From Chiloscyllium plagiosum (lineage: Eukaryota): 64,000 nt of DNA. This document shows positions 44,957 through 53,900 of the stretch, piece by piece. The notes below the pieces were generated by a model. It was not told where the DNA came from. It saw only the letters and a list, made by a program, of their open reading frames with translations, and made no database searches. The stretch spans positions 104,506,003 to 104,570,002 of the forward strand of contig NC_057717.1 of NCBI RefSeq assembly GCF_004010195.1, written 5' to 3'. The position numbers were made by a program, and so were the translations under genes. Numbering within the stretch: position 1 is the first letter of the stretch; the number at the start of each line of letters is the position of its first letter.

Positions 44957-47900
44957 GTAAGCCAGCTCCATTTCAGAATTACATCCAAAAGCTGCTACTC
45001 TTATCGGAAACATTGTCTTCCATGTCATCTCCCAGAATTTGAGTCTCCTATATCATCTCCCCCAGAGGAATGGGTAGAATTTTCAGGTCAGCTGTAAAAT
45101 GGAGAAGCTCAGTATTTCCTATATCATCAGGAGAGTGTTTGTTCCTGATGTCCAGTGCAGAACTTGCTCAAGGTATGTAACTGCCTGACATGAGCTGTTT
45201 GATGCACACGCGGTGGGGAGCATTTGGTGCACATGTACTGGATGTCGATTTGATCCAAACCATCAGTGAGACAGAAAGTTAAGACATGAGTTTTGAGAAA
45301 ATTTGTAGCTCAGGTTGAGGTTCTGGATGTAGGTTTGTTCGCTGAGCTGGAAGGTTTATTTCCAGACGTTTCATCACCATACGAGGTAACATCTTCAGTG
45401 AGCCTCAGGCGAAGCACTGTACATGATTCCAGCTTTCAATTTATATGTTTGCGTTTCTTTGGGTTGGTGATATTATTTCCTGGGGTGATGCCATTTCCTG
45501 TTCTTTTTTTCTCTCACAAAACAACATGACCCTCTCTCACTAGTATCCTTACATACAGATAAGGAAAACGTGAGGACTGCAGATGCTGGAGATCAGAGCT
45601 GAAAATGTGTTGCTGGAAAAGCGCAGCAGGTCAGGCAGCATCCAAGGAGCAGGATAATCGATGTTTCGGGCATGAGCCCTTTCCTGAAAAAGGATGCTGC
45701 CTGACCTGCTGCGCTTTTCCAGCAACACATTTTCAGCTCATACAGATCAGAAAGGACACTACTTCGACTGGGACAACACATCCATCCTAGGACAAGCCAA
45801 ACAGAGACACGCACGAGAATTCCTAGAAGCATGGCATTCCAACCGGAACTCTATTAACAAACACATCTTCCGCCCTCGAGAAGGGAAAAAAGAACAGGAA
45901 ATGACATCCCCACCGGAAATGACATCCCACAGGAAATAATGTCACCAACCCAAACATATAAATATAAAGCAGGTATCATGGACAGTGCTTCATCTGAGGC
46001 CCACTGAAGATTTTACCTAGTAGGGTGACAAAATGTCTGGAAATGAACCTTCCAGCTCAGTGAACAAACCTACATCCAGAGAAAACTGCCTTTGCGGATG
46101 ATGTTTATCGATTACTCCGTCTTACAGCTCCTTCCACCCTGCTGTAATTTTACAGGTGCTTCCTGTATTCACAGATTTTTGTTTTGAATTGCGCTGTTTT
46201 AGAGATGGTAATGCCCACCTCTGGAGTAGGAGGGTCTTGGGGCTTGAACCCAGGTCTCCTATCTGAGAGGCCGGGACACTACCACTGCACCATAAGAACC
46301 CTCCCATCCCTATTTTAACGTATTTTTATGATCAACCTGTTCAGAGATATTGTTACACCCCTCTGGAGCAGGTGGGATTTGAACCTGGGCCTTGTAGTTC
46401 AGAGGTAGGGAAACTAACACTGTGCCACAAGAGGTCCCTACCATCCATATATTGTACTCAAACATGACATCACCACAGGAAGTGATATCACCAACCCAAA
46501 CATAGAAATAGAAAGCAGGAATCATCAGCAGTGCTTCGTCCAGAGGGCCAATGAAGATGTTACCCAGTATGGTGACGAAACATCTGGAAATGAACCTTCC
46601 AGCTCAGTGAGCAAACCTACATCCAAAACCTCAACCTGAGCTACAAATCTTCTCAAACAATTAATGGCTACCACCGGTTTCTCTTAACCGTAAATAAAGG
46701 CATTAACAATCTCGATTATTTTATTAACCAGCCGTTAACAATGGGAGTTTTGGTATACATGCAATAGGGAGGATTCTTGTGGTAATGGCCCTACCTCTGG
46801 ACAGGTTGATTGGAAAATATGTGATGGGTTGTGTTTGAAGATAATGCAGATAGATGCCCAAAGTAAGAGAATGTCATTGGTTAATCCAAAACTGTTGGCT
46901 GAGTTGCAAACAAAGGCTACAGAGCTGTACGTCTGAGTGACAGGAGAGCTTAATTTGATGCTCAAGACAGGTGACTGGAATTGCTTTGTTCTGGGCAACA
47001 GTAAGTGGAAGGAAAAACAATGTGGCCCTTCATTTTCTCCCTTTTCTGTAATATTCCAAAACACCTTACTCTCAAAATGGAGGCAGTTCAGATATTTCCA
47101 TGTTATAAATAGAGTCATAGATGTACAGCGTGAAAACAGACCCTTCGGTCCAACTTGTCCATGCTGACCAGATATCCCAACCCAGTCTAGTCCCACCTGA
47201 CAGATTCCCATTTATCCATTTCTTCCTTTTCTCAAGCACAAGGCTCAGTGGGCTCTGTTGGAAATCGAGCTGGCTATCTGTCTCTCTTCCTGTGGGACAA
47301 CCCATCATCTGACGACAAATTCCCAGGGTTTCCATGACTCCGTACCCTAGGGTGTGAGGACATTCTCTATGTCCGAGGAGTCAGTGGAGAAAAAGGCATC
47401 AGCTTCTTAGGTGCCTTTTTTTAAAAAAAATAAAGTCTTGCATTAATGTAGTGCTTCTCACACCCTCAATTCCTGAGAGTGACTGTTGAGAATTTGTGCT
47501 CAGATTTCTAGAGTGAGACTTGCAAGAAAATACTTCATCAGGAGGATAAAAAAGCAGTGTATAATATTTAAATAGAGTGAGATGACAGAACTCTGAGGTA
47601 CAGAGGAATCTGGCTGATTTGGTACATGAATTACAACAAACAGATGCAGCAAGAGGGGGAAGATGGAACATTGCAAGGGAATGGAATATAAAAGTAAAGA
47701 TGTATGACAGCTCAAAAGGGTATTGGTGAGACCATACCTAGAGTACTGTGTGTGATTTTGGACTTGTTATTTAATTAAGGGTGTAAACGTGTTAGAAGCA
47801 ATTCAGAGAAAGCTCACATGACTGAATGCTGGGATGAGCTGTTACCTTATGAAGAAAGGTTGGATCGGCTGGGCCTGTTCCTATTGGAGTTTAGAAAAAT

Positions 47901-50900: not shown

Positions 50901-53900
50901 GAAGTGGTGTCCTTCCTGATCTGTATGAGCTGAAAATGTGTTGCTGGAAAAGCGCAGCAGGTCAGGCAGCATCCTTTTTCAGGAAAGGGCTCATGCCCGA
51001 AACGTCGATTATCCTGCTCCTTGGATGCTGCCTGACCTGCTGCGCTTTTCCAGCAACACATTTTCAGCTCTGATCTCCAGCATCTGCAGTCCTCACGTTT
51101 TCCTTATCTGTATGGAAGGATACTACTGAGAGAGGGTCATGTAGTTTTGTGAGAGAAAAAAAGATCAGGAAATGACATCACCCCAGGAAATAATATCACC
51201 AACCCAAAGAAACCCAAACATATAAATTGAAAGCAGGAGTTTTGAGAAGAATTTTAGCTGAGGTTGAGGTTTTGGATGTAGGTTTGCTCGCTGAGCTGAA
51301 AGGTTCTTTTCCAGACGTTTCATTACCTTACTCGGTAACATCTTCAGTGGACTTTATGCAAATCAATGCTGAAACTTCCTGCTTTCTATTTATATGTTTG
51401 GGTTTCTTTGGGTTGGTGATGTCATTTCCTTCGGTGATGTTATTTCCTGTGTTTTATTCCATCAGTTCATATATGTTGCTTTAAATGCATTGTGCACTTA
51501 GGGACAGAGTCTTTAGTTATATTGTTTTATTATTTGAGCCTCTAGCCTTCTCTGTAGATTTGGTACTTGGCTCCTCATTACTAACTATGCAGAACCTGTT
51601 TCTCTATCCTACTTATGTCGTTGGTATCTACATGGAGAACAATGACAGCATCCTACCCTTCCCACTGCAAGTTCTTCACCAGAACTGAGTAGATGTTCCA
51701 AACCCTGGCACCAGGCAAGCAACACAACCATTTGAAGTTTCACTCCTTGCTGCAGAGAATAGTGTCAATCCCCCTCAACATAGCTTGCCCTACAACCATT
51801 ACAGTCCTTTTCCCTCCCCTCACATAAATGGATTCCTCTACCACAGTGCCATGTTGAGTTAGCTCAACTGCCCTGCAGCCCCAACCCACATCCAAACTTG
51901 GTGAAAGAATCACAAATTGTTGAACAATTCCAAAGGCTGAAACTCTTTCCTGGTGGTCCCCTTTGCTGCTCGGGTAGCAGTTTCACACACTCCTTTCCCT
52001 GACCACTTATCAAATCAGAAGACCCCATCCTAAGCGATGTGGTTGCCTCTTGGTACAACACATCCAGACAATTTCCCCCTCCCTGATGTGCCATAGTGTC
52101 TAGAACCTGGTCTCCAGCTCAATGACTGTCTGAGTCCAACTATGAATACTGACAAAGGAGCAGCGCTGTGAAAGCTTGTGATTTCAAATAAACCTGTTGG
52201 ACTATAACCCGGTGTCGTGTGACTTCTGACCTTGTTCACCCCAGTCCAACACCGACACCTCCACATCATTGCCATTGTGGTCCAATGTAAACATTGAGAA
52301 GTTCTCAAATGCTACAACCATGACATGTTGCCTGTCCTGACATCTTTAATGTGTTTTAGTTAGATCCTTAATTATTTCAATCAATTATTTATTTTACTTT
52401 TTAAAAGCATTAATGACTTTACTAACAGTTCCTAAACTATTTTAAACCATAAAAAGGAAATAAACCTTCACCACTTACCAGCTACTCACCAAACAGCTAA
52501 CTTCTTCCCTGGAAGTCTCCTGCTTGTTTACCTTGCAATCCAGCATCTGCATGTCTCTAACTTCTTCCCTGGGTCAGAGCAACAACCAATTCCTACAGGG
52601 TGAAACAGTAAGAAACAACAAAGGTTCACCACCTTCCCCTTCTCATTTAAATTTCCTTATTCACCCGACTCTCAGCACTTTGTTCAAAGTTTCACTGAGA
52701 TGTTTCTCTTTACGCACTCTGAGTTATCTCCGTTCTAGGGATAGAAAGCACAATTTAAGCTAATTGTCCAACGTAAACTGTTCTCCAGTGTATATTCCTG
52801 CTGAAGACTGGTTTAAATTTCAAATTTAAACAGTAAATTTCGGATAAATATTAAGGGTGAAATACAAACAAACCTGGCTGTTTAGAAAGATTCCCCTTGC
52901 TCTCTCAATTCCCAGCACACTGTTCACAGTCACACTCAGTGGGTCGTTGATAGTGTGAGTTGAAGGTGAGGGGCGGAGGAGGGACAGTGACTTGGAAATC
53001 TGCCTGTTTTCATGTTGAATGTTCTATATAATGTCTTCACCAGACTCGTTTCATTGTTTCTCTTGCCAGCAGTCGAGCGGGTCGATGCCCTGCCTGATCA
53101 CTTGACCACAGATGCCCGTTCAAGAGTGCGGATGAGGAGGGACCTGGCGGCCTTGCCAGCTGAGCTGATCACCCAGATTGGTAACCGATGTCACCCCAAG
53201 CTTTATGCAGAGGGGGACCCCACTGAAAAGCTGGAACTTGTTACAGGTACTGCCCACATTTCAAGGTTTCTTTCGTGTTTTCTTTCACTCATAGAACGTT
53301 GGTATTGCAGGCTAAACCATAACTGCCTTGAGAATGTGGTGGTGAGCTGCCTTCTTGAACCATAGCAGTCCTTCAAATGGACGTACACCGACAATGCTAT
53401 TGGGAAGGTCATTTGTAGGCTTTGGCCCAGTGACAATGAAGGAACAGCGATATAGTTCCAGGTCAGGGTGTAGCTGAACTTGTAGGCTGTTTCCATATAA
53501 TCTGCTGCCTTTGTCCTTCTAGGTGGTAGAGTTCACAGGTTTGGGAGGTTAGCGTGTACATTTTGTAGATGGGACACCCTGCTGCTACTGTGCATTGCTC
53601 ATGGAGGGAGTGAATGCTGAAGCTGGTGAATGTGGTGCCAGTCAAGTGAGCTGCTTTGTCCTGGATGGTGTCAAGTGTCTTGAGTGATGCTGGAGCTGCA
53701 CCCATCCAGGCGAGTCGGGAGTATTCCATCACACTCCTGACTTGTAGATGATGGACAGGCTTTGGGAAGTCATCTTTCACATTTTGTCAGGCCTCTCCAC
53801 TCCCTAGCTGTTCCACCCCTGACCGATGCTCCTGTTTGTGAATACCTCCTGAGTTTGATTTGTTATATTTTTACAGGAACTAGTGTCTTCATCACTCGAG

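Follow-up and report, generated by a model that had tools for sequence, protein, structure and literature searches.

An intron of a NACC1-like gene in the shark Chiloscyllium plagiosum contains a block (49376-51451 of the 64,000-nt stretch analysed here, the window) composed, in order, of a Penelope-type 3' end (P1), a snap-back of ~40 bp, a 10-nt link, an inverted copy of the neighbouring segment 45428-46963 and a second pLTR (P2). The reading we prefer, with moderate confidence, is that an old Penelope partial tandem was later patched by a microhomology-mediated DNA template switch. The four-part structure is real: the pLTR, fold-back, inverted copy and second pLTR described in a first-pass annotation were all recovered in place (Table 1). 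The link and the GGAG repeats flanking the inverted copy were absent from that description.

Table 1. Features of the block, its target and its host gene (window positions)
Feature	Position	Strand	Basis or remark
NACC1-like coding exon, BTB domain, ATG to splice donor	44122..44956	+	NACC1 is the best PDB match; Pfam BTB 1e-27
NACC1 intron, 8113 nt, contains both arms	44957..53069	+	donor and acceptor read from sequence
Older independent pLTR copy, same family as P1	45288..45515	-	82% to P1
Donor segment (left arm), intact	45428..46963	+	
Old LINE, endonuclease N-terminus, left flank	49150..49375	-	in-frame join with right flank
Left TSD copy, tgttttgtt	49367..49375	+	A at 49373 in organism B
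P1, 5'-truncated Penelope-type 3' end: end of GIY-YIG ORF + pLTR	49376..49659	-	protein match, motif scan
Snap-back, inverted copy of last ~40 nt of P1	49662..49700	+	about 4 differences in 38 nt
10-nt link, exact reverse complement of P1 49465-49474 (hammerhead stem II)	49698..49707	+	
GGAG repeat, inverted-copy entry	49708..49711	+	
Inverted copy of 45428-46963 (right arm)	49709..51238	-	27 substitutions in 1505 columns, 5 indels
GGAG repeat, inverted-copy exit	51236..51239	+	
P2, second pLTR, same start as P1, truncated at about base 214	51237..51451	-	207/214 identical to P1
Right TSD copy, tgttttatt	51450..51458	+	
Old LINE, end of ORF1-like region and start of ORF2, right flank	51459..52150	-	

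The host gene is NACC1-like, as annotated earlier, and lies on the plus strand; the PDB matches, the Pfam BTB domain and the match of the exon 3' of the intron (53070-53246) to NACC1 agree on this. The GT donor at 44957 was read from the sequence. A TRMT1-like frame, without a match in the PDB search, was confirmed by Pfam.

The block was also thought to be flanked by a near-TSD within one old LINE, and both points were borne out. The two TSD copies agree at 8/9 positions in the window, and the match becomes 9/9 when the left copy is taken from organism B because that organism reads A at 49373. When 16 duplication lengths (0-15 nt) were tried, removal of 9 nt gave the best LINE ORF2 match across the site, an ungapped 48-residue alignment to the LINE ORF2 protein P0084 (E 4e-7 in a 120-protein set; 39.7 bits versus at most 32.3 at the other lengths). 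The frame test and the organism B allele together identify a genuine 9-nt TSD in an AT-rich target. The right flank also matches a LINE at 14888-15117 of the window (tblastn, E 2e-8). DNA alignment to this LINE was uninformative on continuity, as the joined score was equalled by 66/100 shuffles, and the protein test was used in its place. Pfam scans of the LINE flanks gave nothing relevant. A single TSD thus encloses both pLTRs and restores the LINE frame, which argues against their independent insertion.

That explanation and an assembly artefact, considered together, are very improbable. Between the arms there are 27 differing sites and 5 indels, and each arm carries derived states. Letters of the right arm also occur in two further samples of organism A, X4 (49753/49767) and X15 (the 9-nt deletion). 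The arm/flank contig depth was 1.75 in X4, 2.57 in organism B, 1.21 in organism C and 1.46 in a further run, ratios that are not copy numbers and, with 1.24 expected for two old arms, do not decide the arm count of B and C. In favour of an artefact, the inner junctions are spanned by none of the contigs listed, an absence that carries no weight as evidence. The contig alignment covered 4 of 24 runs from organisms A, B and C, contigs only, and was dominated by copies of the family; 32 pieces, 40 difference rows and 15 joints were listed out of a set with a further 412,260 pieces, 238 difference rows and 1,373 joints. Both outer junctions are spanned by public short-read contigs of organism A (X4 records 17 and 24). 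Organism B holds the Penelope left junction (record 26, 49142-49423), where a read from an empty site would be expected to mismatch at 37/48 letters. Organism C probably carries the right junction, with its record 8 starting at 51417 (organism A range 51411, 51422). This record has 11 extra letters near the junction end; with lenient scoring, the chance alignment of an empty-site contig could reach about 30 nt into P2. The proposed empty site was seen in neither relative (B, C) among the contigs listed, nor did any of these hold a short allele, lacking the inverted copy, in B or C. None of the listed joints skips the block, which likewise carries no evidential weight.

The element ends belong to a Penelope-type family, which from resemblance we take to be of the Penelope/Poseidon clade. 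P1 matches the C-terminus of P0002 (52% identity over 62 aa, E 2e-17), for which the RVT_1 (E 0.0073) and GIY-YIG (E 0.0027) calls are weak because both fall short of the Pfam cut-offs. It is 77% identical to P0007 over 97% of 62 residues, the one family relative among 14 candidates in the protein search and too few for defining a subfamily. The start of P1 and P2 is identical, as the first-pass annotation held, but it is not special to them since the independent copy at 45288 begins there too. The substitutions it regarded as private are in part subfamily letters: the residues S-A-L are common to P1, P2 and P0007 and absent from the other three window copies tested. A motif scan found the hammerhead core with stem II on the minus strand at 49486 (down to about 49453, in P1) and 51347. 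The ribozyme is predicted only: it was absent among 11 Rfam matches, which were sub-threshold miRNA-type matches to hairpins, and the lowest-energy folds lacked it.

P1 (49376-49589) and P2 (51237-51450) are identical at 207/214 positions, and P2 shares a 2-nt microhomology with the TSD. The fold-back forms a stem at 49618-49700 (RNA z = -10.7) that 0/200 shuffles equalled. The link shares a 3-nt microhomology with the snap-back; an equally good match was obtained with about 72/20000 random 13-mers, and in the four other pLTR copies tested the link matched over 4-7 nt at best. P1, P2, the snap-back and the TSD are consistent with one TPRT event by a Penelope-type element, and to this extent the single-event model of the first-pass annotation stands. 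We infer that, before the split from organism B, a Penelope/Poseidon-type RNP nicked the AT-rich site in the dead LINE and reverse transcribed about 285 nt from the fixed start (P1). The cDNA end would then have folded back twice, leaving the 40-nt snap-back and the 10-nt link, and synthesis would have restarted at the fixed start to give about 214 nt (P2), sealed to the target with the 2-nt microhomology. Its product would have been a partial tandem about 546 nt long, which contained a 41-bp hairpin and was enclosed by the 9-nt TSD. It is improbable, in our judgement, that only P2 and its TSD are old and that P1, the snap-back and the inverted copy arose later from this one pLTR by replication template switching. 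Many letters that are infrequent among the aligned family contigs are common to P1 and P2 (e.g., 49446, 49502, 51375), as such DNA-level rearrangement would give; however, P1 reaches 71 nt deeper into the element than P2 and has no local template for this, the snap-back looks older than the arms, and the return to the first base of the element would have to be chance.

The left arm is the original and the right arm the derived copy, because the end of the right arm interrupts the pLTR at 45288-45515 mid-element, at 45428, while the left arm runs past. The donor segment holds two further pLTR pieces, a palindromic element with 48-bp arms and SINE-like repeats, and lies 2.7-4.3 kb from the copy site and 2.4-3.9 kb from the nick. 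A spacer of 2745 nt separates the two arms. The copy ends are not plausible hammerhead cut sites, as the cut inferred for the pLTR at 45288-45515 falls about 60 nt away from 45428. A 7-nt match of the 9-nt indel at 50588 to the donor flank was judged to be chance.

The arm comparison proposed in the first-pass annotation gave 1478 matches and 27 substitutions over 1505 columns (1.8%), plus 5 indels that range from 4 to 18 nt. The arms are more alike than the flanks are to those of organism B (34/850, 4.0%, p=0.002) or organism C (47/1035, 4.5%, p=1e-4); against the pooled organism B divergence, which is at least 3.4-4.0%, p=0.009. In contrast to the arms, P1 and P2 (7/214) fit the ages of the splits from B and C (p=0.8, 0.5), and the snap-back, at 4/38, exceeds the arms in divergence (p=0.006). 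Part of this gap may reflect a slow region, because within the arm itself organism B and the right arm differ at just 7/362 positions (1.9%; p=0.08 versus flanks). An inverted copy as old as the element ends is not what the arms indicate, although gene conversion could have rejuvenated them. Conversion would have to run at about 86-107 times the mutation rate, which exceeds the human average (one order of magnitude) and reaches the upper end of the 10-100x given for single loci (10.1101/135152).

We therefore favour a second, later step, probably only in lineage A, in which a host DNA polymerase, presumably stalled near the base of the hairpin, would have switched template through 3 nt of microhomology, read 1.5 kb from the opposite strand and then returned, so that GGAG stands on either side of the copy, as in a FoSTeS/MMBIR-type templated insertion. 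The copy enters 8-11 nt past the stem base at 49700 and shows 3 nt of microhomology at each end relative to a junction of link and pLTR start with the copy omitted; the chance of the GGAG repeat with 3+3 nt of microhomology is about 0.005, a value computed after the pattern was seen. That the copy was made in the same event as the tandem, as the single-event model also holds, is not established.

Capture during insertion followed by conversion, with either template, is nevertheless a serious possibility, somewhat below an even chance. It accounts without further assumptions for the position of the copy precisely where link and P2 meet. Snap-back, link and long copy all read the same strand, as a repeatedly folding strand would. 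It would also fit the mild patchiness of the arm substitutions (dispersion p about 0.05; other three statistics p 0.10-0.27). Most of this possibility lies with a DNA template, which taken separately we regard as tentative: the cDNA end would have folded back three times (40 nt, 10 nt, and 1.5 kb on resected upstream DNA), been re-extended on Penelope RNA from the fixed start and sealed, with later conversion of the arms. Besides the seam and the equal polarity of all switches, divergence declines with repeat length (38 nt 10.5%, 214 nt 3.3%, 1505 nt 1.8%), 7/27 substitutions fall in the outermost tenth of the arm, and L1 insertions carry local templated DNA and inverted duplications. However, strong conversion is required, that the copy begins with the first three letters of the pLTR, and has the matching G, must be that same chance or an aborted 3-nt restart, and templated inserts of L1 are typically far shorter and more local.

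The first-pass annotation had proposed NACC1 pre-mRNA as a template. On this account the Penelope RT would have moved onto NACC1 intron RNA whose free 3' end lay at 46963, reverse transcribed 1.5 kb from there and jumped to a second Penelope RNA. The copy is antisense to the transcript, as expected from NACC1 sense RNA, although a same-strand DNA template gives the same orientation and the two cannot be told apart by it. The entry junction can be read as one untemplated G without microhomology, as in RT end-jumping, and PLEs carry intron-containing host sequence between direct pLTRs (PMC3846280). Against an RNA template, the arms are more alike than the organism B flanks and the GGAG microhomology is as problematic as with DNA. 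No A-to-I footprint was found in the copy (6 T>C versus 5 A>G among the 27 substitutions) despite a perfect 48-bp hairpin in the donor, and both copy ends lie mid-intron, away from splice sites. The RNA template is thus not established, and we consider it improbable.

Penelope/Poseidon insertions are known to include partial tandems, an inverted 5'-truncated piece, junction palindromes and TSDs of 8-10 bp (PMC3846280; PMC8557442), and the pLTR of PLEs carries a minimal hammerhead (PMC4209133). The shark block shares with insertions of such endonuclease-bearing elements the direct tandem of 5'-truncated pLTRs, the palindrome (an inverted piece) at the truncated end, the 9-nt TSD, the AT-rich target and the hammerhead-core motif; the organism B TSD allele ends in ATT, the motif preferred in vitro by anole Poseidon. 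What it has beyond them is a self-templated link of 10 nt and, at the tandem seam, a local insert of 1.5 kb. In Adineta vaga, host DNA lies between direct pLTRs, with Pen1 spacers of 0.9-1.5 kb and an NRPS gene case with an 8-bp TSD and an empty allele (PMC3846280). The shark block likewise has non-element DNA of similar size between two direct pLTRs within one TSD, but the rotifer cargo had moved to a new locus or its source was untraced, whereas the shark donor is nearby, inverted and may postdate the insertion; the empty allele known for the NRPS case has no counterpart among the shark contigs listed.

L1 templated inserts and local inverted duplications (22 in about 3,600) are typically under 250 bp and within 15 bp of the insertion site (10.1101/2024.08.27.596794; PMC11702581). 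There too local genomic DNA is copied into a TPRT product with a TSD, whereas the shark copy is 1.5 kb, comes from a kb-scale distance and lies in a PLE. R2 shows cDNA snap-back and template jumping: before the 5' join, the 3' end of the cDNA serves as a primer on that cDNA or on target DNA close by (PMC11371274); R2 is another element class, and the part of that account available to us describes no kb-scale copy followed by a second element piece. The later steps of Penelope insertion are not yet validated (PMC11167929). Precedents exist for host DNA enclosed by direct pLTRs and for local templated inserts; the size, inversion and distance of the shark copy are unusual.

FoSTeS/MMBIR denotes microhomology-mediated templated insertion. 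The block resembles its products in the 2-4-nt microhomology at both junctions, the intact donor, the nearby inverted template and the adjoining hairpin. It differs in that the patch is nested exactly at a retroelement seam, where the TPRT intermediate itself is a possible trigger.

Within one verified TSD, the locus preserves a snap-back, a link that the element itself templated, a second start at the fixed site and a kb-scale local copy. Either an insertion intermediate borrows 1.5 kb from kilobases away, well past typical L1 inserts, or leftover hairpins trigger later duplications, and both outcomes inform how repeats create local inverted duplications. We suggest, tentatively, that Penelope seams and snap-back hairpins are recurrent acceptors of kb-scale neighbouring copies in shark genomes, at insertion or later. 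If so, a very abundant Penelope element would continually supply local inverted duplications and intronic dsRNA, and its clearest large example would be the present locus, whose age can be gauged against two relatives. Judging from its arms, the block might form a 1.5-kb RNA stem in the NACC1 pre-mRNA; by itself it is probably a single fossil, a neutral scar in the NACC1 intron.

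The block at 49376-51451 is real, well resolved and datable, and varies on the known outcomes of Penelope-like element (PLE) insertion and of templated insertion. Between two direct pLTR pieces (P1 and P2), it holds a snap-back, a 10-nt link and an inverted 1.5-kb copy. Comparing the window with itself, and aligning the matching stretches exactly, confirmed every part described in the first-pass annotation, which had overlooked the link and the GGAG bounds of the copy. P1 and P2 are identical at 207 of 214 bases; the arms differ by 27 substitutions in 1505 columns and by 5 indels. 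An equally good link match was seen for about 72 of 20000 random 13-mers, and in the four other pLTR copies tested the link matched only 4-7 nt.

Features of the block and of its surroundings
Feature	Position	Strand	Remarks
NACC1-like intron	44957-53069 (8113 nt)	+	encloses the region under study
TRMT1-like exons	26217-32182	-	Pfam TRM; upstream of NACC1 (44122, +), head to head
Left arm	45428-46963		
P1	49376-49659		
Snap-back stem	49618-49700		
Link	49698-49707		exact reverse complement of P1 49465-49474
Right arm (inverted copy)	49709-51238		
GGAG	49708-49711; 51236-51239		both bounds of inverted copy
P2	51237-51451		
Longer P1-family piece	45740-46080	+	endonuclease C-terminus; lacks ~8 codons found in P1 and in protein relative P0007
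Second Penelope-type family, 3' end	21070-21420		GIY-YIG tail shares 80% identity with 45763-45867; a hammerhead-core motif lies at 21353
Palindromic mini-element	45596-45739 (copy 50927-51070); 34198-34393		perfect 48-bp arms, 48-nt centre
Decayed LINE	14591-17230		ORF1-like, endonuclease and RT regions
Dispersed short repeat	48827-48906; 52149-52268; 31476-31598; 37312-37434; 37778-37861		first two on either side of block, inverted, 80% over 80 nt
Minisatellites	1-284; 27800-28054		33-nt unit, 8.6 copies; 43-nt unit, 5.9 copies

P1 and P2 are 5'-truncated 3' ends of an endonuclease-bearing PLE, putatively of the Poseidon clade. On the minus strand, a stop-free stretch of 62 residues in P1 shares 52% identity with the C-terminus of P0002, a protein with weak RT and GIY-YIG matches under the Pfam cut-offs, and 77% with an exonised piece in P0007. 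The named matches among the closest protein relatives of the repeat carry the source labels Stegostoma, Hemiscyllium and Chiloscyllium, marking the window as shark-like DNA. A motif scan placed a hammerhead-core motif at 49486 (P1) and 51347 (P2), while an Rfam search detected none; PLE terminal repeats are described as carrying this motif in the available part of PMC4209133. The protein match and the motif together point to PLE 3' ends, with cDNA synthesis running left to right on the + strand.

P1 and P2 do begin at the same base, as first claimed, but this is the usual start of the family and an independent copy at 45288 uses it. The letters regarded as private to the pair are partly shared with P0007, and thus a subfamily trait, whereas others are rare among the listed family contigs. 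In the accessible text on the anole element (PMC11167929), the nuclease prefers ATT, and RT begins at fixed internal sites without target homology; a restart at a fixed start site is therefore a better reading of P2 than a jump to the end of an RNA. Loose contig ends at 50020 have a weak consensus (agreement ~0.44), the final six letters being the same in all four public runs compared, a hint that the start of many family copies lies beyond that of P1 and P2, as with the optional PLE 'tail'.

The 9-nt TSD is genuine, with the whole block inside it, because its removal restores a LINE match and the left copy in organism B equals the right copy (A at 49373). Removal of 9 nt was the best of 16 duplication lengths and gave an ungapped 48-residue match to a LINE ORF2 N-terminus across the site (E 4e-7 in a set of 120 proteins, gathered with the LINE at 14591-17230 as query); neither flank alone reached E 1e-3 in this comparison. 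The proposal of a near-TSD within one continuous LINE was thus upheld.

The region 48700-52200 was compared with short-read contigs of four of the 24 runs listed: X4 and X15 from organism A, X8 from B and X11 from C. X4 contigs (records 17 and 24) bridge both outer junctions, and states derived in the right arm occur in X4 and X15. In organism B, record 26 crosses the left junction and reaches 48 nt into P1, which a control supports. In organism C, record 8 probably shows the right junction, the alternative being chance alignment of an empty site. Among the pieces listed (32 of 412,292 in the four runs), none spanned the inner junctions and none represented an empty site. The palindromic mini-element family is extremely abundant, giving the highest depth bins in each of the four runs.

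The left arm is the donor, since 45428 falls within an intact pLTR continuing to 45288, whereas the right arm ends there. Both arms have mutated since copying: relatives carry the left-arm state at 49753, 49767 and a 9-nt indel at 49811, and the right-arm state at a 16-nt indel at 50006 and a 9-nt indel at 50588. The left-arm deletions of 16 nt (46642-46657 / 50006-50021) and 9 nt (46087 / 50588-50596) lie between short direct repeats. Both are absent from the listed X15 contigs and the latter from the X4 contig, which may reflect polymorphism within organism A or masking by contig merging.

Divergence was dated with all listed flank records (A: 9, 15, 16, 17, 24; B: 25, 26, 32; C: 1, 2, 8), excluding records from paralogous family copies and those from the arms in A. 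The flanks differ from the window at 12/1899 (0.6%), 34/850 (4.0%) and 47/1035 (4.5%) positions in A, B and C. P1/P2 divergence (3.3%) is consistent with the B and C flank ages, and the snap-back has 4 differences in 38. At 1.8%, the arms date as younger than the flanks in B (p=0.002, or p=0.009 when the B arm records are pooled in) and also younger than the snap-back (p=0.006), and are indistinguishable from P1/P2 (p=0.18). Same-segment evidence for young arms is modest because the right arm differs from B at only 7/362 and from C at 12/299 positions, against 4 and 6 between the arms in those stretches. The differences between the arms show mild clustering, with p ~0.05 for one of the four statistics.

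We are highly confident that P1, the snap-back, the link and P2 were made by TPRT. Under one continuous synthesis, entry into the long copy involves one untemplated G without microhomology, and the exit has 2 nt of microhomology; a patch placed in an already existing 'link-G-pLTR start' seam has 3-nt microhomology at each end and yields the GGAG repeat (chance of this pattern ~0.005, computed after it was seen). The link/P2 seam lies 8-11 nt beyond the hairpin base, near which a minus-strand polymerase could stall. The first-pass annotation had proposed a single retrotransposition with template jumping onto the local NACC1 sense strand, as nascent pre-mRNA or DNA. As a single event with an RNA jump, this stands only in part: the copy orientation fits RNA, but same-strand DNA equally, and nothing positive supports an RNA template because the copy lacks editing bias (6 T>C and 5 A>G among 27 substitutions) and its internal 48-bp hairpin is unchanged. 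The long insert probably arose by DNA-templated copying, and the chances that it came later than the Penelope insertion are about even. It is possible, if somewhat doubtful, that it was made during that insertion, from DNA or RNA taken jointly; in favour of this are the position of the copy right at the seam and the common polarity of all switches, whereas the young arms would then require gene conversion at ~86-107 times the mutation rate. Human gene conversion averages one order of magnitude above mutation, with single loci at 10-100 times, in the part of 10.1101/135152 available.

Comparable outcomes are known. Partial tandems, palindromes at junctions, TSDs of 8-10 bp and direct pLTRs with host DNA between them are on record for Adineta PLEs (PMC3846280, in excerpt), and such features are summarized across PLEs in PMC8557442 (in excerpt). 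R2 can snap back onto cDNA or nearby target DNA (PMC11371274, in excerpt). L1 insertions contain local templated DNA and inverted duplications, the templates typically <250 bp long and no more than 15 bp from the site, in the portions available of PMC11702581 and 10.1101/2024.08.27.596794; supplementary figures S9-S10 of the former may hold closer L1 cases. A literature search by title and start of abstract, with most subscription papers outside it, found no PLE described as carrying an inverted, kilobase-sized copy of local DNA.

The head-to-head order of TRMT1 and NACC1 is presumably the same in human. An exon near 4651-4950, which we take to be alpha-mannosidase-like, had no Pfam match. From their sequence, the arms could pair across 1.5 kb of NACC1 pre-mRNA, with perfect runs of 267, 134, 122 and 111 nt. 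The pairing span begins 471 nt after the intron donor and ends 1831 nt before the acceptor, with no known exon between the arms. Self-comparison of the window showed further inverted repeats already present within this intron.
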